This document shows, piece by piece, positions 28,136 to 42,915 of a stretch of DNA of 64,000 nucleotides. The position numbers and the translations under genes were made by a program. Each line of letters begins with the position of its first letter. Position 1 is the stretch's first letter. The notes under the pieces were generated by a model. The model searched no databases. It was not told where the DNA came from and worked only from the letters and a program-made list of their open reading frames with translations. The stretch is from Candidatus Latescibacterota bacterium (lineage in GTDB: Bacteria > Latescibacterota > UBA2968 > GCA-2709665), in contig OZ241917.1 in assembly GCA_965203805.1 (NCBI GenBank), positions 4,064,001-4,128,000 on the forward strand, in the 5' to 3' direction.

Positions 28136-30673
28136 ATGGCATTGAAGAAATCCCAACTCTATTCATCACTCTGGCAAAGCTGCGACGAGTTACGTGGTGG
28201 CATGGACGCGTCTCAGTACAAAGACTACGTCCTGACCCTTTTGTTCATGAAGTATGTCTCTGACAAACACGCCTCCGATCCCAACGCGCTTATCGAAGTT
28301 CCTCCTGGCGGCGGCTTTTCGGACATGGTGGCGTTGAAAGGAAACAAGGAAATAGGAGACAGGATAAACATAATTATTGGAAGACTTGCCGAGTCGAACG
28401 ATTTAAAAGGTGTCATCGATCAGGCGGATTTCAATGACGAAAGCAAGCTCGGTTCGGGCAAGGAAATGCAGGATCGGCTTTCCAAACTGGTTGCCATATT
28501 CGACGGTCTGGACTTCCGGGCCAACCGCGGCGGGGGAGATGATCTGCTCGGCGACGCGTACGAATACCTGATGATGCACTTCGCCACCGAGTCGGGTAAG
28601 AGCAAAGGGCAATTTTACACGCCGGCCGAGGTATCCCGTATCATGGCGAAAGTGATCGGTATTGGACCTGACACTCGCCAGGACCAGACCATCTACGATC
28701 CGACCTGCGGCTCCGGCTCGTTACTGCTCAAGGCCGCGGACGAGGCGCCAAACGGCATCACAATCTACGGCCAGGAGATGGACAACGCCACTTGGGCGCT
28801 GGCTCGAATGAATCTGATCCTGCATGGCCACCCGACAGCCGAACTTTGGCGTGGGAATACGCTGGCCTCACCGTATTTCAAAAACTCTGATGACAGTCTC
28901 AAGACGTTTGATTTCGCCGTCGCGAATCCACCCTTTTCTGCAAAAGCCTGGACAAGCGGCCTCAATCCGGAACACGACGAATACGGACGGTTCGGGTATG
29001 GTATCCCCCCGGCAAAGAATGGTGACTATGCCTTCCTCTTGCACCTCATTGCGTCGCTCAGGAGCAACGGAAAGGGTGCGATTATCCTGCCGCACGGCGT
29101 GTTATTCCGTGGCAACAAGGAAGCGGATATCCGCAAGAACCTCGTCCGGCACGGCTTTATCAAGGGTATCATCGGCCTGCCAGCCAATCTATTCTATGGC
29201 ACCGGCATACCCGCCTGCATACTGGTCATCGATAAGCAGAGCGCCCACGCTCGCACGGGTATCTTTATGATCGATGCCAGCAAGGGCTTCCTCAAGGATG
29301 GGAACAAGAATCGCCTGCGGGCGCAGGACATCCATCGAATCGTCGATGTATTCAACAATCAAATCGAGGTGCCTCGCTATTCCCGCATGGTGCCGGTAGC
29401 CGAGATCGGCAGTCCCGCTAACGACTACAACCTCAACATTCCGCGATATATCGACTCCAGTGACCCGGAGGATTTGCACGATCTTGACGCGCACCTGCAT
29501 GGCGGCATTCCGGATCGGGACCTCGATGCACTTGCTGCTTATTGGGAGGTCTTCCCGTCATTGCGTCAGGCGTTGTTTGTAGGTAATGGCCGTCCGGGTT
29601 ATAGCGACGCCAGGGTTGAAACCCAACAGATGAAGGATGCTATTCTCAACCACGGCGAATTCAAGGTCTACATGCGGCGGGTCTCAGTTGTTCTCGATAG
29701 TTGGTGGGAGGCCCACCAGCCCGTCCTTATGTGCCTCGAAAAGGGAACCGATCCCAAGAATATCATCCTCATCTTGTCGGAAGACCTACTCACGCGTTTG
29801 TCCGGTCTGCCACTGCTCGACAGGTATGACATTTTTCAGCGACTGATGGACTACTGGGACGAGGTTATGCAAGACGATGTATACCTCATCGCCGATAATG
29901 GATGGAAAGCTGGCCGTAACCTGCGCTCTCCATACGAAAAAGAAACGCCGGAAATTAAAATCAAAAAAAGAAAAACGACCTCCAATTACGTGGGGGAAGT
30001 CATTCCGGCATCCTTGGTAATCACGAGGTTTTTCTGTGCCGAACAGCAAGAACTCGAGAGGCTTGAGTCAGACGTCGCTAAATTAGCGGAACGGAAAGAG
30101 GAGTTTGAAGCAGAACATGCTGCAGACGAGGGCGTTCTCAACGGACTCGAAGGCAAGAGTGGAATCACCAAGGGTAATGTGCAGCAACGCGCAGTAGAAC
30201 TTAAGGAATCCATCCTGAAAGCGTATCCCAAGAATAAGCCCGAGCACGATCAGGCGAAGTCGATCAAGAAGACGACATTTGGCGATAATGACTGGATCAA
30301 GAACATAAAGGACGCAGAAGGCCTATTCGAGGAGCTGGATGTTCTTTACGATTATCTTCAGCTGATCGCGGATGAGACAAGGCAAAAGAAGGCGCAAGAA
30401 CGAGCGATGGAAGCGTTGCACATGGCGGTAAATGAGAAGTACAACCAGCTCACTGATGTAGAAATAAAGTCTCTTGTGATCGAGGACAAATGGTTCGCGC
30501 GCATCCGAGCCGATATTCAGGCAGAGGTGCAGCGAATTACACAGCAACTTACCGGTAGGGTCAAGCAACTCGACGAGCGTTATGCGCGGCCGCTTCCCAA
30601 GTTGGAGCGGGAGGTCGATGAATACAGCGCGAAGGTCGAGGGCCACCTGAAAAAGATGGGACTATCGTTGTAG
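28136..30673 (+). CDS. hsdM: Type I restriction-modification methyltransferase subunit M
   Basis: CDELRGGMDASQYKDY, GQFYTP, DPTCGSG (motif I), NPPF (motif IV). Confidence 0.96.
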   Translation: MALKKSQLYSSLWQSCDELRGGMDASQYKDYVLTLLFMKYVSDKHASDPNALIEVPPGGGFSDMVALKGNKEIGDRINIIIGRLAESNDLKGVIDQADFNDESKLGSGKEMQDRLSKLVAIFDGLDFRANRGGGDDLLGDAYEYLMMHFATESGKSKGQFYTPAEVSRIMAKVIGIGPDTRQDQTIYDPTCGSGSLLLKAADEAPNGITIYGQEMDNATWALARMNLILHGHPTAELWRGNTLASPYFKNSDDSLKTFDFAVANPPFSAKAWTSGLNPEHDEYGRFGYGIPPAKNGDYAFLLHLIASLRSNGKGAIILPHGVLFRGNKEADIRKNLVRHGFIKGIIGLPANLFYGTGIPACILVIDKQSAHARTGIFMIDASKGFLKDGNKNRLRAQDIHRIVDVFNNQIEVPRYSRMVPVAEIGSPANDYNLNIPRYIDSSDPEDLHDLDAHLHGGIPDRDLDALAAYWEVFPSLRQALFVGNGRPGYSDARVETQQMKDAILNHGEFKVYMRRVSVVLDSWWEAHQPVLMCLEKGTDPKNIILILSEDLLTRLSGLPLLDRYDIFQRLMDYWDEVMQDDVYLIADNGWKAGRNLRSPYEKETPEIKIKKRKTTSNYVGEVIPASLVITRFFCAEQQELERLESDVAKLAERKEEFEAEHAADEGVLNGLEGKSGITKGNVQQRAVELKESILKAYPKNKPEHDQAKSIKKTTFGDNDWIKNIKDAEGLFEELDVLYDYLQLIADETRQKKAQERAMEALHMAVNEKYNQLTDVEIKSLVIEDKWFARIRADIQAEVQRITQQLTGRVKQLDERYARPLPKLEREVDEYSAKVEGHLKKMGLSL

Positions 30674-30694
30674 GAAGGATAGAGGAGGATCAAC

Positions 30695-31558
30695 GTGTCA
30701 GGATCGAGTGCGACAAGTCTTCCAACCGTTCCATTCGGGAAATATCGGATCAGCCGGCTGATCATGGGCGACAATCCGATCTACGGATATTCACATTTCA
30801 ATCAGCTACTCTCGGGACATCAGAAGGAAGTCAATACATCTGATCAAGTGATGGCGACCCTGCGGCGCGCGGAGGAAGTAGGCATCAACGCTTGGCAGAA
30901 TTCCCTGACCCAACGATCTACCGCCGATCTTCAACGGTACCGCGAAGAGGGCGGTACGATCCATTACTTCTGCCTCAGCCCTGGCGGGTTATGGTACGAC
31001 GACCCCTCGCGGATCGTAGAAGCCGCCAGACACGAACCGATCGGGATGGCGCCCCACGGAAGCGGTGTCGCAGGGCGGTGTCTCAAGGAGAATCGCCTTG
31101 GGTATCTTCGAGATATCCTCAAGAAGATTCGTGACACCGGCGTCATGGTCGGGTTGTCGGTTCACAATCCCCGTCTCATTGATGTTGTCGAAGAAGAAGA
31201 TTGGGATATCGACTATTTCATGACCGCGCTGTATTATTTGGAAGGCGCCCAAGAGGAGTTCGAACAAAAATTTGGCTATGCGCCCCTTGGTGAAATCTAC
31301 CTCCGCGAACACCGCGACCGCATGTGCCGCATCATCCGCAACACTACCAAACCCTGTATTGTCTTCAAAGTCCTCGCGGCCGGTCGCACGATCGGCTCCA
31401 GGAGCCGGATTCGCGAAGAATTCGCCTATACGCTCGATAATATCAAGTCAAACGACATTCTTCTGGTGGGGATGTATCAGAAATTCAACGACCAACTCGG
31501 CGAAAACGCGGCTATGGTAGCGGAATTGTGTCAGGGAGAGTCAGTTTTAGGCGGGTAG
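30695..31558 (+). CDS. Aldo/keto-reductase-like TIM-barrel hypothetical protein
   Basis: LPTVPFGKYRISRLIMGDNP N-terminus, GLSVH.P and FKVLAAGR resemble AKR-related proteins; GGAGGA RBS. Confidence 0.6.
   Translation: MSGSSATSLPTVPFGKYRISRLIMGDNPIYGYSHFNQLLSGHQKEVNTSDQVMATLRRAEEVGINAWQNSLTQRSTADLQRYREEGGTIHYFCLSPGGLWYDDPSRIVEAARHEPIGMAPHGSGVAGRCLKENRLGYLRDILKKIRDTGVMVGLSVHNPRLIDVVEEEDWDIDYFMTALYYLEGAQEEFEQKFGYAPLGEIYLREHRDRMCRIIRNTTKPCIVFKVLAAGRTIGSRSRIREEFAYTLDNIKSNDILLVGMYQKFNDQLGENAAMVAELCQGESVLGG
31408..31541 (+). repeat. 134-bp direct repeat copy 1 (3' end of the 30695-31558 gene)
   Basis: GATTCGCGAAGAATTCGCCT...CTTCTGGTGGGGATGTA...TGTGTCAGGGA recurs at 42964 and 43987. Confidence 0.9.
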
Positions 31559-31637
31559 CAAACCACGCACGACCATTGCTACCCGTTGATCGCACGGTGG
31601 GCTAATCAGATGAACAATAAACGCAGTTCTTTGGACA

Positions 31638-32969
31638 ATGGCCTTGATGCTCCGACATAGACTATCCGGGGATTTGCCGGTGGGTTACAAGCGTACAGAA
31701 CTCGGGTTACTTCCTGACGCGTGGGAAGCAGTGCCTCTCGGTGATCTCTTCGTTTTCAAGAATGGCTTAAACAAAGCCAAGCGTTTCTTCGGTACCGGGT
31801 CACCTATCGTCAATTACATGGACGTTTTTAGACGCCCGGGACTTAAGGCGGAAGATTTGTCAGGAAGGGTTGACCTCAGTCCTGAAGAGATCAAGAAATA
31901 CAAGGTGCGGCAGGGCGACGTTTTTTTTACGCGTACTTCCGAGACTATTGAGGATGTAGGTGTCGCATCGGTTATGCTCAACGAGCCGCGCGATACCGTA
32001 TTCAGTGGTTTTGTTCTTCGCGCCCGGCCGCGCGGTGGCCGACTTGACAACGGTTACAAGCAGTATTGCTTCGGACCAAGAGAAGTTAGATCCCAAATCG
32101 TATCAAATGCAACATACACAACTCGTGCTTTGACGAATGGTCGATCCCTGTCGGCAGTGCGTATCCCAGTCCCACCAAAGCCTGAGCAACGCGCCATCGC
32201 CGCGGCATTGTCGGATGTGGATGGGTTGCTCACGGCGCTGGAAGCGCTGATCGCCAAAAAGCGAGCCATCAAGCAGGCCGCTAGGCAACAACTCCTTACC
32301 CGCAAGACTCGGTTGCCCGGGTTCACCGGGGCGTGGGTGACGAAGCGATTAGGTGAGCTAATTCGAATAATACCAAGTGGGATCTACGGCTTACCAAGAC
32401 AAAACGGGCAACTAATAGCAATGCCAGTCGCGACCACAGCACACATTGATATTGGTGACAGGTGGAATCACAAGAATATGGACATTCGCTATTTCACGGA
32501 AAATCAAAAAGCGAATTTTTCGCCTAGACAGGGCGATTTGATCGTTGTTAAATCAAGCGGCTCGTCCGAAAGTATACAATCTGGAAAGGTTGGATATGTC
32601 TCGGATGATCAAGCTGGGTTATTCATCTTTAGCAACTTTTTGATGCTCCTTCGCCCAATTTTCTGCAATTCACAATTCTTGTTCTTTCAACTGGTATCTA
32701 GTCGAGTGAAAAAGATGCTGCCACATTTGGTTGAAGCATCAACCTATCCCAATATCCGTATTGACGACTACTTGGACCTACAGATCCCGTTGCCGCCAAG
32801 TGAGGAACAGGCAGCGATTGTGGACATCTTATCTGAAATTGATGCCGAGATTACTTCTCTGGAGCTACGGAGAGACAAAGCCCGTGCTATTAAATGTGGT
32901 ATGGTGCAGCAGCTTCTCACCGGCCAGGTTAGGCTGGTCGACCCCGACTTTGATCACGCCAGGAGCTGA
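31638..32969 (+). CDS. hsdS: Type I R-M specificity subunit S
   Basis: Two TRDs with conserved spacers PPKPEQRAIAAALSDVD...QQLLT and PPSEEQAAIVDILSEID...QQLLTGQVRL. Confidence 0.95.
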   Translation: MALMLRHRLSGDLPVGYKRTELGLLPDAWEAVPLGDLFVFKNGLNKAKRFFGTGSPIVNYMDVFRRPGLKAEDLSGRVDLSPEEIKKYKVRQGDVFFTRTSETIEDVGVASVMLNEPRDTVFSGFVLRARPRGGRLDNGYKQYCFGPREVRSQIVSNATYTTRALTNGRSLSAVRIPVPPKPEQRAIAAALSDVDGLLTALEALIAKKRAIKQAARQQLLTRKTRLPGFTGAWVTKRLGELIRIIPSGIYGLPRQNGQLIAMPVATTAHIDIGDRWNHKNMDIRYFTENQKANFSPRQGDLIVVKSSGSSESIQSGKVGYVSDDQAGLFIFSNFLMLLRPIFCNSQFLFFQLVSSRVKKMLPHLVEASTYPNIRIDDYLDLQIPLPPSEEQAAIVDILSEIDAEITSLELRRDKARAIKCGMVQQLLTGQVRLVDPDFDHARS

Positions 32970-33044
32970 AGTTGGCTTAAGGATAGTGATTGAGAATTGT
33001 TAGACACACGTAATTCTTGAGCATAAGTATCCGGAGATATTCTG

Positions 33045-33998
33045 ATGTCCGATGCATTCAACACAAAGAAACAGCCAGTACCTTCTAGCATTGGTGACGA
33101 GTGCTTCCCTGCCCTATACCATTCTGCTGACAAAGCCTCACTTTCCGCGCAACAGCGTTTCATCTGTCTGCAAAGATGGCAAATCACTTGCCTCATTTTG
33201 GGTAGCGTTGGTGCTGTCACTGCGACAAATGTTGAGGTCGAAGTCGTCAAATTGGCTTATATTGTTTCGGCGATCGTACTAGCAATTCTAGTCATCCTCA
33301 CTTGGGTAACGCGTGCCCGTCGGGATGATAAAGTTTGGTTCGACTGTCGCGCCATTGCAGAGTCCACAAAGACAGCTACGTGGCGCTTCATGATGAAAGC
33401 TGCACCCTTCAAGGATGACAGCAAGGCTAGAAAGTTGTTCATTAACGAGCTTCGGCTAATACGAAAAGCGAGACCATTCATTGCGCAAAATTTGGCACAC
33501 AACTTAGACGCAAACGCCCCGTCCATAAGTGACTCAATGGATAATGTGCGCCAGAAGCCCTTGAATGATAGGCGATACGTGTATCTTGTGTCAAGGCTTC
33601 GCGACCAAAAGATTTGGTATTCCAATAAAGCCAAATTCAACTCAAGGATGGAACGGCGCTGGTTCTTTGGGGTGTTGGTACTACAGATTCTTGCCGTTGC
33701 TCTTGCAATCATCTGTGCTGCTACGGGTAGTTTGCCGGTAAACATCGTTCCATTGGTGTTAACCAGCGCCGCTGCTGGTATTGCATGGACCCGGATAAAG
33801 CGCTACGCTGAGCTAGCTCAGTCCTATTCGCTTGCGGCCCAAGAACTAGGAGACCAAGAAACAACCGCGTTGGATATAACGGAAGAAGCTGATTTCCTCG
33901 AACTCGTGGAGCAGGTCGAGCAGACCGTTTCTCGAGAGCACACTATGTGGTGTGCACGCCGAGATATAGTGTTCGATCCATCCGACATAAAGTACTAA
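33045..33998 (+). CDS. SLATT/DUF4231 tandem-domain 4-TM membrane effector
   Basis: FPALYHSADKAS..AQ, TM pair, WFDCRAIAESTK..TWRF; second unit RLRDQKIWYSNKA, TM pair, EQTVSREHTMW. Confidence 0.8.
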   Translation: MSDAFNTKKQPVPSSIGDECFPALYHSADKASLSAQQRFICLQRWQITCLILGSVGAVTATNVEVEVVKLAYIVSAIVLAILVILTWVTRARRDDKVWFDCRAIAESTKTATWRFMMKAAPFKDDSKARKLFINELRLIRKARPFIAQNLAHNLDANAPSISDSMDNVRQKPLNDRRYVYLVSRLRDQKIWYSNKAKFNSRMERRWFFGVLVLQILAVALAIICAATGSLPVNIVPLVLTSAAAGIAWTRIKRYAELAQSYSLAAQELGDQETTALDITEEADFLELVEQVEQTVSREHTMWCARRDIVFDPSDIKY

Positions 33999-34056
33999 CA
34001 TGGCCAAGGTTAGAATTCTGTCCTGAAGTCGACGCGTACGTGGACCCTTCAGAATA

Positions 34057-35103
34057 ATGCAATCAAGGATGATTGGGATGACCATCCAGCAAGGCAATGG
34101 ACCTAGATATCTTAATGCCGGGTTCTGTACCGCAATAGAACGAAGCCTTCAGTTATATGTCGCTAAGACATCCGTTCAGCTACCTTGCTTTTTCCCGTCC
34201 GTTTCGAGCGTGAAGACAGCCCTATTACCGGTAAATTACCTTGACCTTCTGACCGTTGCCGGCCATTCACCTATCTTGTCGTCAGCCTATGATTTAGCTC
34301 ATTGTCCTGCCGATCAGCGCTCGCAAATGGAAACTGCACTTTCGAGGCGTACAGAAAGCGGTACAATTGTACTTATCGATAGCGGAAACTACGAACGCTA
34401 TTGGAAAAAAGATACCGAATGGCAACCGGCTCATTTTCATGAGATAGTCGGTTCCTTTCATCACGATCTTTGCTTCTGTTATGACAACCTAGAGCCACCT
34501 GACTCGCCGAAATCGATCGCCCAGGACGTCGTTGCCAGTGTAATCAGAGATCAGGATCATGCACAATCAACAGTGCTTCCGATAGTCCATGGCAACGCAG
34601 AATCATTGCCAGATGCGGCGCGTTTAACTGCGGAACAACTCTACCCTCTATTGTTGGCTGTGGCGGAACGAGATCTGGGAGAGGGAATTCTCGAGCGGAT
34701 CCGCACCGTACGGAAAATTCGAGCAGCGCTAAATTCATTAGGTTTCTATTGCCCGCTTCACCTGCTCGGTACGGGCAATCCGCTTTCAATCATTGCCTAT
34801 ACATTGGCGGGAGCCGATAGTTTTGACGGATTGGAATGGTGTCAGGTCGTTGTTGATCACGAAAATGGCAGGATGTTACATATGCAGCAATGGGATTTGG
34901 TCCGTCATCAGACAGATTGGCGTCCATCTGACGAACTACCATACCGCTACGCTGTTTTGATGCACAATCTGGAATTTTATCGCGAGTTTATGGTGGGGCT
35001 TCATGACGCGCTACGTTACGGAACAGTTGAACCGTTCGTTCAACAATACACAACTAAGGAACAATTGGATCGACTCTTGTCTGCTACCAAAGGAGACCAA
35101 TAG
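34057..35103 (+). CDS. tRNA-guanine transglycosylase (TGT)-fold protein, Cap10-like
   Basis: LIDSGNYE (cf. DSGG[FY]Q), HLLGTG, GADSFDG, C-terminal HNL. No CxCxxC Zn site, so not a housekeeping Tgt. Confidence 0.75.
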   Translation: MQSRMIGMTIQQGNGPRYLNAGFCTAIERSLQLYVAKTSVQLPCFFPSVSSVKTALLPVNYLDLLTVAGHSPILSSAYDLAHCPADQRSQMETALSRRTESGTIVLIDSGNYERYWKKDTEWQPAHFHEIVGSFHHDLCFCYDNLEPPDSPKSIAQDVVASVIRDQDHAQSTVLPIVHGNAESLPDAARLTAEQLYPLLLAVAERDLGEGILERIRTVRKIRAALNSLGFYCPLHLLGTGNPLSIIAYTLAGADSFDGLEWCQVVVDHENGRMLHMQQWDLVRHQTDWRPSDELPYRYAVLMHNLEFYREFMVGLHDALRYGTVEPFVQQYTTKEQLDRLLSATKGDQ

Positions 35104-35104
35104 C

Positions 35105-35818
35105 ATGGCGACGATAAAATTCACGCTTCTGGCTATTGAACAAGCGATCCGCGATGTCTGCAACACATTAGACGAGCGCCCCGCTGTGTCATGGAGAAAG
35201 CACAACGAAGGTGATTTGTGGCGGGAGCTTGTGTCATGTATCCTCGGTAGTCGGGTTCGAATTAACGTTGTAAACTCAGCCATCGAACGCATGACCAGAA
35301 TGTCTTTGTTGTCGCGACCCCAGCCACACACTTGTTTCAATCAACTTGAAGAGGACACTCTAGCAGCACTTAAGGGAGTTTATCCTTTTTTTCGTGTCCG
35401 TGCCAATCAGATTCGGCGGGCAGCAGAGCACATATACAGTTCACGAGGTTCAATACGCAGCCTGTTAAACGACTTAGAAGACGTTTGCATCGCTCGAAGA
35501 TTGCTAGTGCGAGAGGTTCCCGGTCTGGGACCGAAACAGGCAAGTCTTTTCCTTCGCAACATTGGTTTTGCAAAGTACATTGCGATCTTGGATGTACATG
35601 TTCTGACTTATTTGCGTTGGGTAGGAATTAGTGGCTCATCGTTCAAATCGATTTCGAATCTGTGCGAATACGAAGCGTTGGAAGGCGCCTTTATCGAACA
35701 TGCCTGTGCGTTCGGATACTCGCCTGACCAATTCGACCTTGCGGTCTGGATTGTAATAAGGGTGGCAAAGGAGGAATCCAAATTTGCGGATCGTGACTCT
35801 TGTATCGGGTGGATATGA
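35105..35818 (+). CDS. HhH N-glycosylase/DNA lyase (Ogg-like), Cap11-like
   Basis: ELVSCILG, VPGLGPKQASLFLRNIG (HhH with catalytic Lys), AILDVHV (catalytic Asp); ATG 35105 directly after the TGT stop. Confidence 0.82.
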   Translation: MATIKFTLLAIEQAIRDVCNTLDERPAVSWRKHNEGDLWRELVSCILGSRVRINVVNSAIERMTRMSLLSRPQPHTCFNQLEEDTLAALKGVYPFFRVRANQIRRAAEHIYSSRGSIRSLLNDLEDVCIARRLLVREVPGLGPKQASLFLRNIGFAKYIAILDVHVLTYLRWVGISGSSFKSISNLCEYEALEGAFIEHACAFGYSPDQFDLAVWIVIRVAKEESKFADRDSCIGWI

Positions 35819-36380
35819 TTCAACACTTGTGAGCGTGATAGCGAAGGAGGAGGGAGCGGAGTTGTTTCCGCTCTTTATAGACTACGGCCAGCTTGCCGTA
35901 CGCAAGGAGTGGGAAGCCTGCGTGTGCCTTCACTCACAATTTGGTCTACCTCCTGTGACGTACATGGACTTGTCTGGGTTTGGAAAGACGATCTCAAGTG
36001 GTCTCACAGATTGTAATTTGCGTATTAATGAAGATGCATTTTTGCCGGGTCGCAATCTCCTCTTTGTCTTGGCAGGTGCGGCTCATGCTATCGACGTTCA
36101 GGCAAATAGCATCGCGCTCGGCCTACTCAATCCCGCGGATCATATCTTCCCAGACCAGACGAAACAGTTCTTGGAAGAATGCGAAAGGATGATCGAGGTT
36201 GCGATGGGGAGCCGCATTCTTGTCCTTGCGCCATTATTGGAGTTGTCAAAGCGAGAAGTCTTGCTCTTGGCCAGCAAACGAGGGATCACACAAACCTATT
36301 CGTGTCATGCTGGTGGTAAAGAACCTTGCGGGGTTTGTATTGCATGTATTGAAATCGATAATGCTAAAAAAAGGAGATAA
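35784..36380 (+). CDS. queC: QueC-family PP-loop ATPase, Cap9-like
   Basis: SGGYDS PP-loop, DYGQ, PGRNLLF, FPD, TYSC...CGVCIAC Zn site; TTG start with GAGGA RBS overlapping the upstream gene. Confidence 0.88.
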   Translation: MRIVTLVSGGYDSTLVSVIAKEEGAELFPLFIDYGQLAVRKEWEACVCLHSQFGLPPVTYMDLSGFGKTISSGLTDCNLRINEDAFLPGRNLLFVLAGAAHAIDVQANSIALGLLNPADHIFPDQTKQFLEECERMIEVAMGSRILVLAPLLELSKREVLLLASKRGITQTYSCHAGGKEPCGVCIACIEIDNAKKRR

Positions 36381-36382
36381 AG

Positions 36383-36886
36383 ATGGGCGGCATAGGTAGT
36401 GGTAGAGAATTAGACCCAAACGAACTGGAGTCACTCGAGCAGAGTGTCAGAAGGTCTCTTAAGGATCGTGTCGACGAGCACAAACGCAATGTGTTTATAA
36501 GCTTTTCATCGGATGATCTCAGTGAGGTTAATCTGCTGCGTGCTCAGGCGAGGAACCAAGACAGCAACATAGATTTCAATGATTGGTCACTGAGAAAACC
36601 GTTCGACAGTGAGGTAGCCGACTATATAAGGCGCGGTATTAGGGAACGAATTCGCCAATCTTCTGTAACTGTTGTCTATGTGTCTGAAAACACCGCAAGT
36701 AGCAAATGGGTCGACTGGGAGATAAGGGAGAGCCTCAAAATGGGAAAAGGCGTCGTTGCAATGCACAAAGGAAACACTGCACCACGACGACTTCCTAAGG
36801 CAATAATCGACAACAACATTAGTGTCGTACCCTGGAGACAAGATCACCTTGCGAGTATCATTGAGAGGGAATCCGAGAATCGTTAG
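36383..36886 (+). CDS. TIR-domain protein (ThsB/DUF1863-like) with Gly-rich N-terminal extension
   Basis: NVFISFS, IRRGIRERIRQSSVTVVYV, SKWVDWEI (catalytic Glu); AAGGAG RBS fixes start MGGIGSG. Confidence 0.87.
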   Translation: MGGIGSGRELDPNELESLEQSVRRSLKDRVDEHKRNVFISFSSDDLSEVNLLRAQARNQDSNIDFNDWSLRKPFDSEVADYIRRGIRERIRQSSVTVVYVSENTASSKWVDWEIRESLKMGKGVVAMHKGNTAPRRLPKAIIDNNISVVPWRQDHLASIIERESENR

Positions 36887-37104
36887 AAACGCAGGAATTA
36901 ACATTGACATGAAACGCCTCAGCAGTTTTCCTTGGGATTTGGCCGCAATTAGAATCGAGATTTGACTTTTCTGGACGGCGATTCTCTAATTAGCCGGACA
37001 TAAACGGGGGATAAGATGAATATTAACGAACCAAATGCCCCGTGCCTCTTGGGATTGCTAAATTGACGTCTTACAGTTAGGTGCTCGCTGAGGAGGGTCC
37101 CAAA

Positions 37105-38451
37105 ATGTTGACACGGCTACGTTTAGAGAATTTTAAATCCTGGGAAGATACAGGGAACATAACGTTTAAGCCTATCACAGGGTTTTTTGGTACCAATAGT
37201 TCTGGCAAGACCAGCCTTTTTCAAGCTCTGCTGTTAATGAAACAAACAGTCGACTCTTCGGACCCGGGAATTGTATTTCACTTCGGCGATGAGAAGACAC
37301 CTGTGGACCTAGGTGACTTTGAAAGCGTGGTCCACCAGCATGATACAAAGCGAAGTATTAAACTTTCACTTGGCTGGAACTCAGAGATTGAACTGCCTAT
37401 ATACGAAATTCGTAAGGCAGGGGCGACATCGCCAGGTGGCGAAATTGGCTTTGTTGCCGAGATCAAGGAAGAAAACATCGGTTCAGGGAAGTCTCCGATA
37501 TTGCAAGAAATGGCATATAGAGTCCGAGGGAGGCGGTTTGGATTGGTGCGTATAGCCGGTCGCAAGGCACACGAACTATTTGTTCAAGGTGCTGGTTTCG
37601 ATCACTCCCACCGTGTAAGGGATGACGAAAGAAATGTTAGGTCGCTCAAATTTCACGAGTTTCGATATTGGCCGCCTGAGTTCCTCAAAGACCCCACAGC
37701 AATGTACAGTCTACAAAACGCGATGGAGAGATTCCTGCGCGATCTCTATTATCTTGGACCTCTACGTGGCTACCCGTCTCGCATATATGCACGATCGGGA
37801 GCGCAACCGCGTGACATGGGCGCAGCAGGTGAGTTTGTAGTCGATGCGATACTTTCTTCACGTGAACGCGGCAGGAGAATTGGACAACGTAAACAATCTC
37901 AAAGTTTCGAGAGATATGTCGCTCAATGGCTAATGCGTCTCGGGATGATATTCGACTTTCGCGTAGTGGCATTAACTAAAGGGAGAAACTTGTACGAAGT
38001 AAAGGTTCGTAAGTCGCCCGATTCAGCGGAGGTCCTCCTCACTGACATTGGTTTCGGGGTTTCCCAGATTCTTCCCGTGTTGGTGTTGTGCTTTTATGTC
38101 CCCCGTAAGTCCAAGGTCATTTTGGAGCAGCCAGAGATTCACTTGCATCCTTCTGTACAGGCGGGCCTTGCTGATGTATTTATTGACGCTTGGCAGCAGC
38201 GCAATGTGCAGGTCTTGTTCGAAAGCCATAGCGAACATCTATTGCTTAGACTTCAACGTCGAATCGCAGAAGGAAAGATCAACAAGGATGACGTTAGCCT
38301 TTATTTCTGTTCAATGAACGACCAGGGTGCCTCAAACATTAGCCAGCTCGAGCTTGACAAATTCGGGAATATTTCCAATTGGCCTAAAGGGTTCTTTGGG
38401 GATCAGTTCGGTGAAATTGCCGCCATGAGCGAGGCCTTACAGAATAGGTAG
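37105..38451 (+). CDS. ABC-type ATPase (AAA_15/AAA_21 with DUF3696-like C-terminus)
   Basis: LENFKS, GTNSSGKT, IGFGVSQILP, ILEQPEIHLHP, ESHSEH, WPKGFF; GGAGG RBS. Confidence 0.88.
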   Translation: MLTRLRLENFKSWEDTGNITFKPITGFFGTNSSGKTSLFQALLLMKQTVDSSDPGIVFHFGDEKTPVDLGDFESVVHQHDTKRSIKLSLGWNSEIELPIYEIRKAGATSPGGEIGFVAEIKEENIGSGKSPILQEMAYRVRGRRFGLVRIAGRKAHELFVQGAGFDHSHRVRDDERNVRSLKFHEFRYWPPEFLKDPTAMYSLQNAMERFLRDLYYLGPLRGYPSRIYARSGAQPRDMGAAGEFVVDAILSSRERGRRIGQRKQSQSFERYVAQWLMRLGMIFDFRVVALTKGRNLYEVKVRKSPDSAEVLLTDIGFGVSQILPVLVLCFYVPRKSKVILEQPEIHLHPSVQAGLADVFIDAWQQRNVQVLFESHSEHLLLRLQRRIAEGKINKDDVSLYFCSMNDQGASNISQLELDKFGNISNWPKGFFGDQFGEIAAMSEALQNR

Positions 38452-38462
38452 GGGTATCTCGA

Positions 38463-38963
38463 GTGAATTCGAAGAAACCTGAGATAATCATGGATACCAA
38501 TGTCGCCGTAGTTGCAAATCATAATTACCAAGACTTCAACCGGAGTTGCATATTTAAGTGTAGAGAAACATTAAGTATGATCCAGAACGGAGGGTTTCGG
38601 CTTCTTCTTGACGACGAGAATCTGATTATAGACGAATACCGAAGAAACCTCAACCCTTCAGGGGAGCCTGGTCTCGGGGACTATTTCTTCCTGTGGCTTT
38701 GGAAAAACCAAGCTAACGACCAGCATTGCCGGAAAATCACAGTAAAGCCTCACCGAGACCGTGGCTTCGAGGAGTTTCCCAATGACCCAGATCTCGATAC
38801 TTTCGATTGGGATGATCGAAAGTTCGTGGCTGTAGCGTTGGCTAGCCATTCTAGTCCGGAGTTGTTAAACGCATCTGATACAGATTGGTGGCACCACCGC
38901 GCAACACTTCAAAAAAATGGGATTCACGTGGTGTTTGTCTGTCCGGACCTGATGGACGATTGA
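38463..38963 (+). CDS. PIN-fold-like protein
   Basis: IIMDTNV, IIDEY, DWDDRKFVAVA, SDTD acidic-residue pattern; 11 bp after the ATPase. Confidence 0.6.
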   Translation: MNSKKPEIIMDTNVAVVANHNYQDFNRSCIFKCRETLSMIQNGGFRLLLDDENLIIDEYRRNLNPSGEPGLGDYFFLWLWKNQANDQHCRKITVKPHRDRGFEEFPNDPDLDTFDWDDRKFVAVALASHSSPELLNASDTDWWHHRATLQKNGIHVVFVCPDLMDD

Positions 38964-39038
38964 GGCCAACTCATCGAGTGCGGCCAATGTCTTTCTCCCA
39001 GTTGTGAACTGGCCCGAGTTACTAAATTGCGAACGTAC

Positions 39039-42000
39039 ATGAACACAATCGGTCAAAACGAATTTCGCACACAGCGACGGGTGATTTCTTTCTTGCGGGA
39101 TTCGCTAGGGTACTCCTATCTCGGCAACTGGCAGGACCGCGTCGATAACAGTAATGTTGAGGAAGGGCTGCTCACCGATTGGCTGAAGCGAAATGGTCAC
39201 GGCGACAGTGTTATCAACAAAGTTCTGCGTGAACTGGACAACGCATCAGCACTCGGCGGCAGCAAGACTCTCTACGAAGCAAACCGTGAGGTTTATAGAC
39301 TGCTCCGTTACGGAGTGAAGGTCCGACCGGACGTCGGCGAACCGAACGTCACCGTCTGGCTGATGGACTGGGAGAATCCCGGTAAAAACGACTTTGCAAT
39401 CGCCGAGGAGGTTACAGTCTCAGCGACGAACAGCAAACGACCGGACATTGTGCTATACGTCAATGGGATCGCTCTCGGGATCCTGGAACTGAAGCGCTCG
39501 ACGGTTTCTGTGACCGAGGGCATTCGTCAAAACCTTGACAACCAGAAAAAGGAGTTCATCCGCCCCTTTTTCACCACCGTGCAACTCGTGATGGCGGGCA
39601 ATGATACCGAGGGGTTGCGTTACGGCGTAATCGAGACACCTGAGAAATACTGGCTGCACTGGATGGAAGCGAACGCCAACCCGGCTGCCGGCGATAATCC
39701 ATTACTGCGCGAGCTGAGTCAACTCTGCAGTAAAGAGCGATTACTTGAGATTATACATGATTTCGTCGTCTTTGACGCTGGGGTAAAGAAGATTTGCCGC
39801 CACAACCAGTACTTCGGGGTTCGTGCCGCACAAAAACGCGTAAAGATCCGAGAAGGCGGTATCATCTGGCACACGCAGGGGAGTGGAAAGAGCCTGACGA
39901 TGGTCTGGCTTGCGAAATGGATTCGCGAGAACGTCACCGACGCAAGGGTCCTTCTCATAACGGATCGCACGGAATTGGACGAGCAAATTGAGACTGTTTT
40001 CAAGGGTGTCAGCGAGGACATCTACCGGACGAAAAGTGGAGCTGATCTCGTGCAGGTGCTTAACAGACCCGACGAATGGCTGATCGGCTCCCTTATCCAC
40101 AAGTTCGGTACAACCGACGATATCAGCGAAAGAGAAATCGAGGCCTACGTCGACGAGATCAAGAAGAATCTACCCGGTGATTTCCGTCCCAAGGGCGAAA
40201 TTTTCGTTTTCGTGGACGAATGTCACCGCACCCAGTCCGGAAAACTCCACGAGGCAATGAGGGCAATTTTACCAGGCGCTTCGCACATTGGCTTTACTGG
40301 AACCCCTTTGCTCAAGGCAGACAAGCGCCGCAGCATCGAGACTTTCGGAACCTACATCCACACCTATAAGTACGACGAAGCGGTGCGCGATGGCGTGGTG
40401 CTGGACTTGCGTTACGAAGCACGTGACATCGATCAGATTATAACTTCGCAGGAGAAAATAGATCAGTGGTTCGAAATCAAGACTCGCGAGTTGACCGACG
40501 TCGCTAAAGCCGAACTAAAGCAGCGATGGGGGACGATGCGAAATGTCCTTAGTTCCGAGGATCGGTTGAGAAAAATCGTTGGCGACATAATGTTCGACAT
40601 GCAGACGCGTGACCGGTTGAAAAGTGGTCGCGGAAATGCATTGCTTGTTTCCGGAAGCATCCACTCTGCCTGCCGCCTCTTTGATATGTTTCAGCAGACC
40701 GATTTGGCGGATAGGTGCGCCATTGTCACGTCTTACAAACCGGCCCCGGGGGACATCAAGGGAGAGGAAACGGGCGAGGGGCTTACCGAGAGACTTCGCC
40801 GTTACGGAATCTACCGAAGGATGCTTTCGGCTCACTTCAACGAGCCTGAAGACAAGGCGATGGGCAAGGTCGCCACGTTTGAGACGGAGGTAAAGAAACG
40901 GTTTATCGAGGAACCGGGACAGATGAAGCTGTTGATCGTCGTAGATAAACTGTTGACAGGTTTCGATGCACCATCGGCGACCTATCTTTACATTGACAAA
41001 CACATGCAGGACCACGGGCTCTTCCAGGCGATCTGCCGGGTAAACCGCCTCGACGGTGAGGACAAAGAATATGGATACATCGTCGACTACAAGGACCTGT
41101 TCCGTTCGTTGGAGCAGTCGATTCAGGATTACACCGGAGGTGCCTTCGGCGGGTACGACCGCACCGATGTGCAGGGGTTGCTGACAGACAGGCTCGCGAA
41201 GGGGCGGGAACGACTCGAGGAGACACGTGAGGCTATCAGGGCTTTGTGTGAGCCCGTCGCCCCGCCCCGCAACCGGTCGGCCTATCTACGTTTCTTCTGT
41301 GGGACAGATAGTGGAAACGGGGGCTGGCTTAATGCGGACAATGAGGCAAGGCGAGTTACGCTTTACAAGCGGGCTGCTGCGTTTTTGAGGGCTTACGCCA
41401 ACCTGGCCAATGAGATGCCCGACGCCGGTTACAGTGAAGCCGAGGCGCAAGAGATAAAAGCAGAAGTAGCCCACTACGAAAATGTCCGCAAGATAGTCAA
41501 GCTCGCGAGCAGCGACTACGTTGACCTGAAGATGTTTGAGCCTGCCATGAGGCACCTCCTCGACACCTACATCCGCGCCGAGGAGAGCGAAAAGCTCTCG
41601 GCGTTTGACGATCTGACACTTGTACAGCTAATCGTCAAGAAAGGTGATAAGGCGTTAGATGCACTTCCAGACGGTATTCGCAGTGATCAGGAGGCGACGG
41701 CCGAGACGATAGAGAATAACGTCCGCCGTCTCATCATCGACGAGACCCCGGTCAACCCTAAATATTACGGCAAGATGTCTGAGTTGTTGGACGCCCTGAT
41801 CCTTCAGCGTAAGCAGGAAAGCCTCGACTACAAGGTGTACCTTGCGAGAATTATTGACTTGGCCAAAAAAGTCAGCAGTCCTGAATCCGAAACGTCCTAT
41901 CCGTCGGAAATCGACACCAACACGCTCAGGTCTCTATTCGATAACTTACAGGGTGCCGCACTTGGACAAGACAAGGCCTATGCCGACACTGGGATGGAGC

Positions 42001-42191
42001 TTTCCGCGGATGAACTTTCCGCAAAGGCGGTCGCTGTGGATAACGCCATCCGTTGCGTCAAGAAAGCGGACTGGCGTGGAAACAAATTTAAGGAACGGGA
42101 GGTCCGCAACGCTATAAGGTCGCAACTCGGCGACAACGAGGGCCTCGTGTACCACATATTCGAGATTGTAAAGGCGCAGAGTGAATACTGA
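39039..42191 (+). CDS. hsdR: Type I restriction endonuclease subunit R
   Basis: RPDIVLYVNG...ELK nuclease, HTQGSGKS, DECHR, FTGTP, LLTGFDAP, QAICRVNR. Confidence 0.96.
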   Translation: MNTIGQNEFRTQRRVISFLRDSLGYSYLGNWQDRVDNSNVEEGLLTDWLKRNGHGDSVINKVLRELDNASALGGSKTLYEANREVYRLLRYGVKVRPDVGEPNVTVWLMDWENPGKNDFAIAEEVTVSATNSKRPDIVLYVNGIALGILELKRSTVSVTEGIRQNLDNQKKEFIRPFFTTVQLVMAGNDTEGLRYGVIETPEKYWLHWMEANANPAAGDNPLLRELSQLCSKERLLEIIHDFVVFDAGVKKICRHNQYFGVRAAQKRVKIREGGIIWHTQGSGKSLTMVWLAKWIRENVTDARVLLITDRTELDEQIETVFKGVSEDIYRTKSGADLVQVLNRPDEWLIGSLIHKFGTTDDISEREIEAYVDEIKKNLPGDFRPKGEIFVFVDECHRTQSGKLHEAMRAILPGASHIGFTGTPLLKADKRRSIETFGTYIHTYKYDEAVRDGVVLDLRYEARDIDQIITSQEKIDQWFEIKTRELTDVAKAELKQRWGTMRNVLSSEDRLRKIVGDIMFDMQTRDRLKSGRGNALLVSGSIHSACRLFDMFQQTDLADRCAIVTSYKPAPGDIKGEETGEGLTERLRRYGIYRRMLSAHFNEPEDKAMGKVATFETEVKKRFIEEPGQMKLLIVVDKLLTGFDAPSATYLYIDKHMQDHGLFQAICRVNRLDGEDKEYGYIVDYKDLFRSLEQSIQDYTGGAFGGYDRTDVQGLLTDRLAKGRERLEETREAIRALCEPVAPPRNRSAYLRFFCGTDSGNGGWLNADNEARRVTLYKRAAAFLRAYANLANEMPDAGYSEAEAQEIKAEVAHYENVRKIVKLASSDYVDLKMFEPAMRHLLDTYIRAEESEKLSAFDDLTLVQLIVKKGDKALDALPDGIRSDQEATAETIENNVRRLIIDETPVNPKYYGKMSELLDALILQRKQESLDYKVYLARIIDLAKKVSSPESETSYPSEIDTNTLRSLFDNLQGAALGQDKAYADTGMELSADELSAKAVAVDNAIRCVKKADWRGNKFKEREVRNAIRSQLGDNEGLVYHIFEIVKAQSEY

Positions 42192-42915
42192 GTGGAAAAC
42201 TTACAGCATTGAGGTACGAGGGACTGCGGTCGACGTGGTCCACAAGGACATCAAAAACCTCCATATTGGGGTTTACCCGCCGAACGGCAGGGTGAGAGTG
42301 GCCGCTCCGCTCAGTCTTGATGATGACGCGGTGCGGATGGCTGTTGGGTCTCGGCTGGGATGGATTCGTCGCCATCAGTCGAAATTCGAGAAACAGAGTC
42401 GGCAGTCCCAGCGGGAATTCGTTACAGGAGAAAGCCATTATTTCGAGGGGAGGCGCTACCGACTCGATGTAACGGAACAGGACGGTCGACCTTCGGTCTG
42501 TCTCCTCAATAACACTACTATGGGTATGTGCGTTCGCCCCGGCGCCGACCGGAATACCAGAGAGTCCGTGCTGGATCGATGGTACCGCCAGCATCTCCGT
42601 GATCGTCTACCGGGCCTCATCGCGAAGTGGGAACCTGAATTGGGTGTGGAAGTCAATGAAGCTCGTATCAGGAAGATGAAGACTCGTTGGGGTACCTGCA
42701 ACCCGAATGCCTGTCGAATCTGGCTGAATCTCGAGCTGGCAAAGAAACCGGCATCCTGCCTAGACTTCGTCGTTCTCCATGAAATGGTTCACTTGATCGA
42801 GCGTCGTCACAACGATCGTTTTCGGTCGCTGATGGACAGGTTCATGCCAACTTGGCGCTATCACCGGGACGAACTCAATCGATCGCCACTGGCGCATGCG
42901 GACTGGCAGTATTGA
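42181..42915 (+). CDS. M48/YgjP-like (DUF45) metal-dependent hydrolase, copy 1
   Basis: MKTRWGTCN, VVLHEMVHL (HExxH), HNDRF. Confidence 0.9.
   Translation: MNTEWKTYSIEVRGTAVDVVHKDIKNLHIGVYPPNGRVRVAAPLSLDDDAVRMAVGSRLGWIRRHQSKFEKQSRQSQREFVTGESHYFEGRRYRLDVTEQDGRPSVCLLNNTTMGMCVRPGADRNTRESVLDRWYRQHLRDRLPGLIAKWEPELGVEVNEARIRKMKTRWGTCNPNACRIWLNLELAKKPASCLDFVVLHEMVHLIERRHNDRFRSLMDRFMPTWRYHRDELNRSPLAHADWQY

Follow-up and report, generated by a model that had tools for sequence, protein, structure and literature searches.

A TIR–SLATT operon with Cap9-, Cap10- and Cap11-like genes, a probable Thoeris system under predicted deazaguanylation control

The 64,000-nt window analysed here, from contig OZ241917.1 (assembly GCA_965203805.1) of a Candidatus Latescibacterota bacterium, carries at positions 33045–36886 five plus-strand genes that encode, in this order, a SLATT membrane protein, a Cap10-like TGT-fold protein, a Cap11-like OGG glycosylase, a Cap9-like QueC-family protein and a ThsB-type TIR protein. 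This operon probably encodes a Thoeris-type TIR abortive-infection system with a SLATT effector, much like type VII Thoeris, whose TIR protein is regulated by the deazaguanylation machinery known from type IV of the anti-phage signalling systems based on cyclic oligonucleotides (CBASS). Coordinates are positions in this window unless they carry a genome or locus handle. The genes are separated by 58, 1, −35 and 2 bp if the third is taken from the ATG at 35105, and with that start we recovered the same five co-oriented open reading frames (ORFs) and gaps that a preliminary description of this DNA had reported. The motifs it had listed (DSGNYE, HLLG, DSFD, GPKQAS, LDVH, SGGYDS, CGVCIAC and WVDWEI) are all found in the translations, and its gene identities agree with the Pfam and PADLOC profile matches. 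Its central idea was that a TIR enzyme stands in for the cyclase, is controlled by a 7-deazaguanine module and acts through a SLATT effector; this idea gained support from synteny, the TIR tail, effector swapping, gene fusions and a complex model, while the supposed novelty of the composition did not survive.

In type IV CBASS, the signalling enzyme is a cGAS/DncV-like nucleotidyltransferase (CD-NTase) whose N-terminus is extended by a segment starting with M(G/S)G(G/S)GG. Cap9 ligates 7-amido-7-deazaguanine (NDG) to Gly2 of this enzyme, and the TGT-like pocket of Cap10 binds the tagged tail and keeps the cyclase inactive; deleting or mutating the extension abolishes defence, which requires both Cap9 and Cap10, whereas Cap11 can be dispensed with and is found in roughly one third of the operons (bioRxiv 10.1101/2025.04.06.647259). 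We follow Wassarman et al., who counted 49 type IV CBASS operons in the same work, in naming the QueC-like protein Cap9, the TGT-like protein Cap10 and the OGG-like protein Cap11.

The TIR protein and its glycine-rich tail

The last gene of the operon (36383–36886, plus strand) encodes a protein of 167 residues that matches Pfam ThsB_TIR at 3.5e-25 and fifteen PADLOC ThsB models, down to 2.6e-17. Among solved structures, its sequence aligns with the TIR protein 8fz9 (7.1e-13), and the top Foldseek hits of its model are 8fz9, EcThsB (8wcf) and SARM1. The glutamate of the WVDWEI motif, E113, is invariant in all 34 aligned sequences. The protein is predicted to be both the synthase of an NAD+-derived signal and the substrate of Cap9. 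Its identification as a TIR protein in the preliminary description was correct; the feature that we consider most telling, an MGG tail at the N-terminus, is absent from that account.

This tail belongs to an extension (36383–36484, plus strand) made up of a glycine-rich segment at residues 1–10 (MGGIGSGREL), a helix at 12–28 and a short linker; the N-terminus of the window protein reads MGGIGSGRELDPNE. In the AlphaFold2 model (predicted local distance difference test score, pLDDT, 76.7), residues 1–10 are disordered (below 50), the helix is formed and the first strand spans residues 35–40, so that the TIR fold begins at about residue 35 and is preceded by 34 extra residues. The start MGGIGSG fits the CD-NTase motif of type IV CBASS, and the arrangement, with a tail and a helix before the catalytic domain, is that described for CdnD of those systems. 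Gly2 is the predicted deazaguanylation site and helix 12–28 the predicted docking helix.

The tail is a property of the family. A search of 5.8 billion proteins gave 1108 homologs of the TIR protein at E≤1e-3, and of the 120 that were listed (161–172 residues, 63–93% identity) all except one begin with M-G and 112 with MGG, positions 4–7 being mostly Gly or Ser. In an alignment of 34 TIR sequences, L10 and P12, which follow the glycine run, are invariant. In a set of 38 genome loci described below, 36 TIR starts could be assessed: M-G-[GS] is found in 32, a GTG start followed by GGGGG in two and MAG in one, and the TIR gene of L026 lacks a start codon. Secondary TIR ORFs of the same loci served as a control: none of these 25 has a glycine run at its called start (several of the start codons being uncertain), and at least 14 begin within about three residues of the first strand, typically with MAK(K/P/R)KIF(V/I)SYDY. 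One recurrent form of these additional proteins is a second ThsB-type TIR of about 132 residues that begins MAKKKIF(V/I)SYDY and has neither tail nor N-terminal extension, encoded between the SLATT and Cap10 genes in 11 of the 38 genome loci and in several metagenome loci (L004:7289–7684, L005:7304–7705, L009:2198–2596, L029:5078–5476, L034:1724–2122 and others). The window has no such gene.

Gene order, effectors and helper enzymes

The linkage of the core genes was followed from two sides. A scan anchored on the TIR protein, with one genome per species, gave 38 loci, whose neighbouring genes were identified by tblastn with the window proteins. They span Latescibacterota, Nitrospirales, Binatia, Acidobacteriota, Poribacteria, Methylomirabilota, Dehalococcoidia, Planctomycetota, Ignavibacteria and alpha-, beta-, gamma- and delta-proteobacteria. 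The order Cap10–Cap11–Cap9–TIR recurs in 34 of them. Cap9 lies directly upstream of the TIR gene in 36 of the 37 loci where this could be assessed (it is missing from L032, and L025 is cut by a contig end), Cap10 is present in 34 of 36 (absent from L028 and L032; L025 and L037 are cut) and Cap11 in 34 of 37 (absent from L011, L028 and L032). The other scan was anchored on Cap10 in metagenomes, with no selection for TIR; at least 596 stretches matched, at least 411 were confirmed and the best 80 were kept, 54 of which could be assessed because they reach 2 kb or more downstream of Cap10. In each of the 54, Cap10 is followed by Cap11, Cap9 and TIR, one of them being flagged solely for a split Cap9 match, and their TIR proteins start with MGG in 53 cases and with MGY in one. 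As far as the contigs extend, the best 80 loci are all of the TIR type, and no CD-NTase was found among them. In the samples examined, the linkage of Cap10 and TIR is exclusive and reciprocal, and the recurrence of one gene order in dozens of unrelated genomes and contigs puts the arrangement far beyond chance. A conserved QueC–TGT–Ogg–TIR neighbourhood without a CD-NTase, which the preliminary description had proposed looking for, is found in genome and metagenome loci alike.

The absence of a CD-NTase from the window, claimed there on the basis of motifs, is also borne out. The five island proteins gave no match to CD-NTase families in Pfam or PADLOC, which leaves no divergent CD-NTase detected among these ORFs, and the genes fill the interval with no spare coding space. 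In the 5.87-Mb genome, the sole SMODS/DncV-like match lies about 817 kb away from the operon. This gene (G000:C1:4914397–4915629, or L039:1474–2706), which encodes 411 residues with matches to DncV-like_NTFase (2.1e-08) and SMODS (2.9e-07), is presumably part of an unrelated CBASS, since no genomic QueC or TGT match lies near it. Among the 57 co-directional neighbour ORFs of the 38 loci, the families with two or more members do not include SMODS, families with a single member being partly listed.

The first gene of the operon (33045–33998, plus strand) encodes a SLATT membrane protein of 317 residues, with SLATT_3 at residues 22–177 and SLATT_1 at 180–302 (Pfam 1.8e-33 and 6.9e-33; NCBIfam 2e-42 and 1.3e-31) and hydrophobic stretches at 62–92 and 204–248. 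It is predicted to act as the receptor of the TIR-made signal and as a cell-killing pore or filament. A four-helix SLATT protein is the commonest neighbour of the Cap10–Cap11–Cap9–TIR core in the genome loci: tblastn with the window protein found a homolog beside the core in 24 of 38, and short SLATT/DUF4231 ORFs are in place near it in L007, L029 and L034. Elsewhere the partner is of another kind. A fusion of TPR-S with a trypsin-like protease stands beside the core in L033 (5399–7990) and L035 (10378–13079), preceded in L033 by a weak alpha/beta-hydrolase match (there, both Pfam hits fall below the cut-off) and in L035 by an ORF that matches no Pfam family. A TPR-S/MAP3K_TRAF_bd protein is found in L024 (6926–8254) and in L036 (4569–7065), in the latter together with a patatin phospholipase, and extra TIR proteins also appear among the changing neighbours. 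Exchangeable effectors around a constant enzyme are characteristic of a diffusible signal read by interchangeable receptors. In the available text of a recent preprint, a SLATT effector (ThsH) and a TPR-bearing one (ThsI) are both reported to respond to canonical cyclic ADP-ribose (cADPR) (bioRxiv 10.64898/2025.12.03.692087).

Between the effector and the TIR gene lie the three helpers. The Cap10-like protein (34057–35103, plus strand; 348 residues) matches Pfam TGT at 3.3e-11 and PADLOC model PDLC00913 at 7.9e-26, and scores below every NCBIfam TGT equivalog cut-off (16–25 bits versus 47.6–350). By sequence, its best match among solved structures is Cap10 itself (9ntn_A, 1.2e-7), followed by an archaeosine TGT (0.0015); its AlphaFold2 model (pLDDT 93.5) has the Cap10–CdnD complex 9ntn as its top Foldseek hit (E 9.1e-16, TM 0.64–0.72), with bacterial TGTs next in the list at about 1e-12. 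In the phmmer alignment, H226, D248 and D122 of 9ntn_A correspond to H235, D257 and D143 of the window protein, and all 29 sequences compared share D108, S109, D143, H178, H235 and D257. None of the 17 invariant columns of the family alignment holds a Cys, so that no conserved Cys zinc cluster of the tRNA-TGT kind is apparent in this family; the solved Cap10 likewise has no zinc site (bioRxiv 10.1101/2025.04.06.647259). The Cap10-like protein is predicted to bind the tagged N-terminus of the TIR protein and to hold or transfer it.

The Cap11-like protein (35105–35818, plus strand; 237 residues) is a helix-hairpin-helix (HhH) N-glycosylase of the Ogg2/AGOG type, with a Pfam Ogg-HhH match of 5e-23. 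Its ORF opens at 35003 (271 residues), and the likely start is the ATG at 35105, which follows the sequence aaaggag and agrees with the starts of its orthologs. Compared with the N-glycosylase/DNA lyase 3n0u of the PDB (9.9e-11), the GxGxKxAS and LD.H motifs are aligned, and the Lys and Asp of HhH glycosylases, K144 and D163, are retained without exception in the 27 sequences compared. Its predicted role is that of a negative regulator. The Cap9-like protein (35784–36380, plus strand; 198 residues from a TTG start) belongs to the QueC family of ATP-dependent ligases (Pfam QueC 3.6e-34; PADLOC QueC model PDLC00911 2.2e-27) and scores below the cut-off of the QueC equivalog TIGR00364 (112.2 versus 150.3 bits). 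Its SGGxDS motif is kept in all 36 sequences that have a residue there, and R90, D124, Q36 and E42 in 37 of 37. Its predicted reaction is the formation of an amide between 7-carboxy-7-deazaguanine and Gly2 of the TIR protein. The retention of catalytic and ligand residues among orthologs makes all three helpers look catalytically competent.

The preliminary description had held that its proposal would fail if the QueC and TGT of the island grouped with housekeeping or Dpd enzymes; the equivalog thresholds of the biosynthetic enzymes are not reached by either. The genome also has strong matches elsewhere, two for QueC (210.7 and 197.1 bits) and one for Tgt (505 bits), against 117.8 and 27.6 bits for the island proteins with the same Pfam models. 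Low scores within the island, together with separate strong QueC and Tgt genes outside it, mark the island proteins as paralogs rather than the housekeeping enzymes. The spacing of the Cys residues in the zinc motif was tried as a discriminator between Cap9 and QueC and dropped, since it is identical in the island copy and in both housekeeping QueC copies. Two further proteins of this genome carry related domains: a 418-residue ORF (G000:C1:1071595–1072848, or L040:907–2160) with a QueC domain (1.1e-61) after about 200 residues without assignment, and a 577-residue protein (G000:C1:5252776–5254506, or L047:586–2316) in which a partial TGT domain (2.3e-09) is accompanied by a weak match to DUF6884.

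A physical link between Cap10 and TIR is seen in gene fusions. Among 1.84 billion proteins, Cap10-like sequences form 854 clusters at E≤1e-3 and 236 (at 50% identity) at E≤1e-30. About a third of the best 150 cluster representatives (52) are long, at 440–590 residues, and in 49 of these (P0127 and 48 others) an N-terminal TIR_2 domain is fused to Cap10, while two long forms carry a Schlafen AlbA_2 domain instead. TIR–Cap10 fusions also occur in the genome loci (L033:2254–3699, L035:7262–8719, L036:850–2325 and L038:7269–8723). Their joining in one polypeptide speaks for joint action of Cap10 and a TIR domain in a single complex. The operons that contain a fusion still encode a separate MGG-tailed TIR protein.

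The two window proteins were also modelled together, each with its own alignment. The complex scored 0.61 and the best of three controls 0.00; a score of 0.61 is reached by 58 of 80 solved complexes and by 2 of 110 mismatched pairs, rates that are rough because own alignments were used. A solved Cap10 complex exists, whose partner has a fold different from TIR. Agreement between the runs covers at least 59% of contacts, with a partner pLDDT of 70 or more. Confident contacts join residues 36, 46, 50, 53 and 68–92 of the TIR protein to residues 27–39, 159–173, 193–198 and 229–230 of Cap10, so that the TIR side of the interface consists of the loop after the second strand (the BB loop) and a strongly conserved basic helix at 79–92. 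The model supports binding of Cap10 to TIR. The BB-loop/helix face of TIR domains takes part in the self-association that catalysis requires, and it is a speculation from the model that Cap10 bound to this face would keep the TIR protein off.

Relation to known systems, mechanism and alternatives

Most features of type IV CBASS are found here, including Cap9, Cap10, Cap11, a membrane effector and a signalling enzyme that bears a glycine-rich M-G-G tail and a helix. Catalytic residues are kept as well, such as the SxGxDS motif of Cap9 and, in Cap10, the Asp/His pair and the nucleobase-reading Asp/Ser/Asp. The differences are that the signalling enzyme is a TIR protein and not a CD-NTase, so that the signal is expected to be NAD+-derived rather than a cyclic oligonucleotide; that Cap11 is near-universal (34 of 37 genome loci and 54 of 54 metagenome loci) as opposed to about one third; and that similarity to the solved Cap10 of CBASS is distant (21% identity in structural alignment; E 1.2e-7). 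Lacking a CD-NTase, the operon falls outside type IV CBASS as that type is defined, while keeping all its other features, the tail motif included.

On the other hand, the operon has what defines Thoeris at the sequence level, namely a ThsB TIR protein with its catalytic glutamate and an effector that varies between related systems. According to the available text of the preprint introduced above, type VII Thoeris consists of a ThsB TIR and the SLATT effector ThsH, modelled there as an oligomer that spans the membrane and has basic pockets, and the effector of type VIII is ThsI, a TPR-bearing CMP-hydrolase; the TIR proteins of both types make canonical cADPR on infection, and added cADPR halts the growth of cells with these systems (bioRxiv 10.64898/2025.12.03.692087). 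The present operon resembles type VII, as the accessible account presents it, in placing a ThsB-type TIR beside a SLATT membrane protein (SLATT_3 plus SLATT_1, a likeness at the domain level alone) and in its expected outcome, abortive infection through membrane disruption. It differs in that type VII has two genes, whereas here three ancillary genes stand between effector and TIR, and in the 34-residue N-terminal extension of the TIR protein.

The preliminary description knew of no named system of this composition. In fact, Fig. 6G of the same preprint already presents Thoeris operons with cap9, cap10, cap11, a ThsB-type TIR and an effector; for an example from Pseudomonadales, AlphaFold3 gave interface scores (ipTM) of 0.79 for ThsB–Cap10 and 0.62 for ThsB–Cap9, and the TIR protein was proposed to bind Cap9 and Cap10 as the CD-NTase does (bioRxiv 10.64898/2025.12.03.692087, as far as its text is available). 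The parts list is the same, again with no CD-NTase, so the composition, here with a SLATT effector, is not new. The treatment there takes a few sentences, and the available text makes no mention of a glycine tail at the N-terminus of TIR, the word 'glycine' being used solely for the Cap2 tail. What we add is the near-universal TIR tail, the reciprocal linkage of Cap10 and TIR, the conserved helper residues, the variety of effectors, the abundance of fusions and the nesting in a restriction–modification (R-M) locus. Our literature searches found no paper that combines QueC, TGT, TIR and SLATT; for Cap9 with Cap10 and TIR, only that preprint was relevant by title, and for SLATT with QueC, none of the matches listed was related.

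Other systems share parts of the same logic. In type II CBASS and in Thoeris with Cap2/Cap3, as described in the sources available, ancillary enzymes covalently prime one terminus of the signalling enzyme, and one ancillary set serves CD-NTases and TIR proteins alike. There, E1/E2-like enzymes adenylate and transfer the C-terminus in a ubiquitin-like manner, while here a QueC-like enzyme would add a nucleobase to the N-terminus. The defence system QatABCD is similar in that its QueC-family member QatC deazaguanylates the N-terminal glycine of QatB; in the accessible accounts it has no TGT-like, OGG-like or TIR component, and its QatC has a remodelled active site, whereas Cap9-type enzymes, the present one included, keep the canonical QueC motifs. 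In the part of a QueC-family survey that was available, only 67% of the genes of the Cap9 cluster adjoin a CD-NTase (PMC13082051), a figure that fits a sizeable non-CBASS share of Cap9.

Put together, these observations are best explained by the following mechanism. After removal of Met1, Cap9 would use ATP to join 7-carboxy-7-deazaguanine from the queuosine pathway of the host to the amine of Gly2, giving a TIR protein with an N-terminal NDG tag. Cap10 would bind the tagged protein and keep it inactive. On infection, Cap10 may transfer the tag, and the TIR protein with it, to a target, as the retained Asp/His pair of TGT catalysis would allow, and the Cap11 glycosylase would counteract this step. 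The TIR protein, freed or tethered, would then self-associate and turn NAD+ into a signal of the cADPR type. Our best guess is canonical cADPR; both this signal and the disruption of the membrane through SLATT are expected by analogy with type VII and VIII Thoeris. The four-helix SLATT protein would bind the signal, oligomerise in the membrane and kill or arrest the cell before phage progeny are released. Of this scheme, the modification itself, the nature of the signal, the part played by Cap11, the trigger and any defence phenotype are inferred.

Several points weigh against this reading. Cap9 is scarcely nearer to the solved Cap9 (9nto_B, 3e-12) than to the solved QueC 2pg3 (9.8e-12), and K154 of the solved Cap10 falls in an insertion, with no counterpart mapped in the window protein. 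The 7-carboxy-7-deazaguanine substrate is plausibly available in the cell, since QueD-like and QueE-like genes are present elsewhere in the genome, yet the QueE-like radical-SAM ORF was found only below its family cut-offs. In the complex model, which cannot represent the NDG adduct, the glycine tail and helix 12–28 are outside the confident contacts and the tail-in-active-site geometry of Cap10–CdnD is not reproduced; for this reason we rejected the model as support for insertion of the tail into the Cap10 active site. In loci with a second, tail-less ThsB protein beside SLATT, it could be that protein which makes the signal. Finally, our literature search found no experiment on this operon type, the available text of the preprint offering operon drawings and AlphaFold3 models (bioRxiv 10.64898/2025.12.03.692087).

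A different view of the same genes would be that two independent neighbours are involved, a plain TIR plus SLATT Thoeris and a separate QueC/TGT/OGG module for 7-deazaguanine modification or repair of nucleic acids, Dpd-like or tRNA-directed and perhaps working with the flanking type I R-M system. The close scores of Cap9 against solved Cap9 and solved QueC fit this view, as do the type I R-M genes around the operon, found likewise in at least seven related loci, and the retained Asp/His of Cap10 and Lys/Asp of Cap11, which make action on nucleic acids chemically plausible. We nevertheless give it little credence. The helpers and the tailed TIR protein are linked in 54 of 54 Cap10-anchored loci and in 34–36 of 36–37 TIR-anchored ones, most of these loci are outside R-M systems, and the TIR protein bears the very tail that Cap9 modifies in CBASS. 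Moreover, a TIR domain is fused to 49 of the 52 long Cap10-like proteins, the island QueC and TGT fail the housekeeping cut-offs in a genome that has its own QueC and Tgt, and the Cap10 family, unlike tRNA TGTs, has no apparent conserved Cys zinc cluster. The idea that the module is a decayed or non-functional remnant riding in a mobile R-M cassette is scarcely credible for the window. It is true that some relatives look decayed. In L026, Cap10 and Cap11 are split and the TIR gene has no start codon; in L028, from another Latescibacterota genome, the SLATT, Cap10 and Cap11 genes are gone, only fragments of hsdS and hsdR are left, and a 352-residue ORF (L028:9308–10366) joins the Cap9 C-terminus to the middle of TIR by an internal deletion. 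In the window, by contrast, the five ORFs are intact, Shine–Dalgarno-like sequences precede the Cap11, Cap9 and TIR genes, and all the catalytic residues that were tested are present, while its closest relatives, L001 and L002, keep the same intact order at 60–94% protein identity.

It is also conceivable, if improbable, that the TIR protein acts as the effector itself: release from Cap10 would let it deplete NAD+, and SLATT would be an accessory membrane toxin, or one that works in parallel, rather than a receptor of a TIR product. Plain NADase activity is common among bacterial TIR domains, and SARM1 is among the Foldseek hits of this one. Yet the protein is a small, single-domain TIR of the ThsB type (Pfam ThsB_TIR 3.5e-25), and its partner may be SLATT, TPR-S/trypsin or TPR-S with patatin, depending on the locus, which is the pattern of a diffusible signal. 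In addition, TIR proteins beside SLATT make canonical cADPR, and added cADPR stops growth (bioRxiv 10.64898/2025.12.03.692087, available text).

If the operon is indeed a Thoeris system controlled by deazaguanylation, its interest goes beyond one genome. Protein deazaguanylation was first described in 2025, at which time its target and purpose in type IV CBASS were unsettled (bioRxiv 10.1101/2025.04.06.647259). A second class of signalling enzyme, unrelated to CD-NTases but with the same glycine tail, appears to be served by these three helpers, and their presence with the tailed TIR protein in 54 of 54 Cap10-anchored loci suggests that the predicted tag regulates signal-generating enzymes at large and not just CD-NTases. 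In environmental bacteria, the TIR-linked form seems to be common, with at least 411 metagenome stretches and 236 clusters compared with 49 type IV CBASS operons. A TIR protein of 167 residues, activated by self-association, may be easier to work with than a CD-NTase in finding the transfer target of Cap10, and the TIR–Cap10 fusions are natural constructs for structural work. A bolder version of the scheme is possible, albeit on balance doubtful: deazaguanylation might be a general leash for immune signalling enzymes that depend on oligomerisation, with TIR systems rather than CBASS as its main home. Cap10 would then grip the BB-loop/alpha-B face of the NDG-tagged TIR protein and hold the monomers apart, until, on infection, its Asp/His pair inserts NDG-TIR into a polymer, for example phage or host nucleic acid, on which the crowded TIR proteins start to signal; Cap11 would excise the adduct and reset the system, and the TIR–Cap10 fusions would be its hard-wired form.

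The surrounding defence islet and its distribution

The operon is inserted in a type I R-M locus (28136–42915) with the order hsdM, a 287-residue ORF, hsdS, the five-gene system, HEC-03, hsdR and a metallopeptidase gene. The preliminary description had placed it between hsdS (31638–32969) and hsdR (39027–42191), which is right as far as it goes; a candidate defence pair that it did not mention also stands in between, directly after the TIR gene. The pair consists of HEC-03B (37081–38451, plus strand), an AAA_15/AAA_21/DUF3696 ATPase (PADLOC 2.4e-128), and HEC-03A (38463–38963, plus strand), which encodes 166 residues and matches no Pfam family (PADLOC 6.7e-33); it is found 3' of the operon in the related loci L001 and L002 as well. 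Together these genes form a layered defence islet, in which the Thoeris/Cap9–11 operon and HEC-03 are nested within a type I R-M operon. The G+C content is 0.483 in the operon, 0.50–0.535 in the hsd genes and 0.579 in the window as a whole. A scan of 31500–39200 for promoters and terminators was uninformative, since shuffled sequences gave nearly as many promoter-like sites (8.7 versus 10) and terminator-like sites (7.2 versus 8).

The insertion between hsdS and hsdR recurs in L001–L005, L011 and L013 and in the remnant L028. These loci come from Latescibacterota, Nitrospirales and Poribacteria, and their hsdR identity is 67–91%. The same site in three phyla suggests that the type I R-M cassette and the embedded defence system travel together, as a unit. 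Within the phylum, the Cap10-like gene is present in 5 of 168 genomes, that of the window counted, and in 3 of the 15 genomes of the genus, a patchy distribution typical of mobile defence genes.

Two other genes complete the R-M locus. After hsdR comes a YgjP-like/SprT-like metallopeptidase gene (42181–42915; Pfam 2.2e-61). The 287-residue ORF between hsdM and hsdS (30695–31558, plus strand) gave no match in Pfam, NCBIfam or PADLOC; it is present at 81–86% identity in L001–L003 and L028, each time beside hsd genes.

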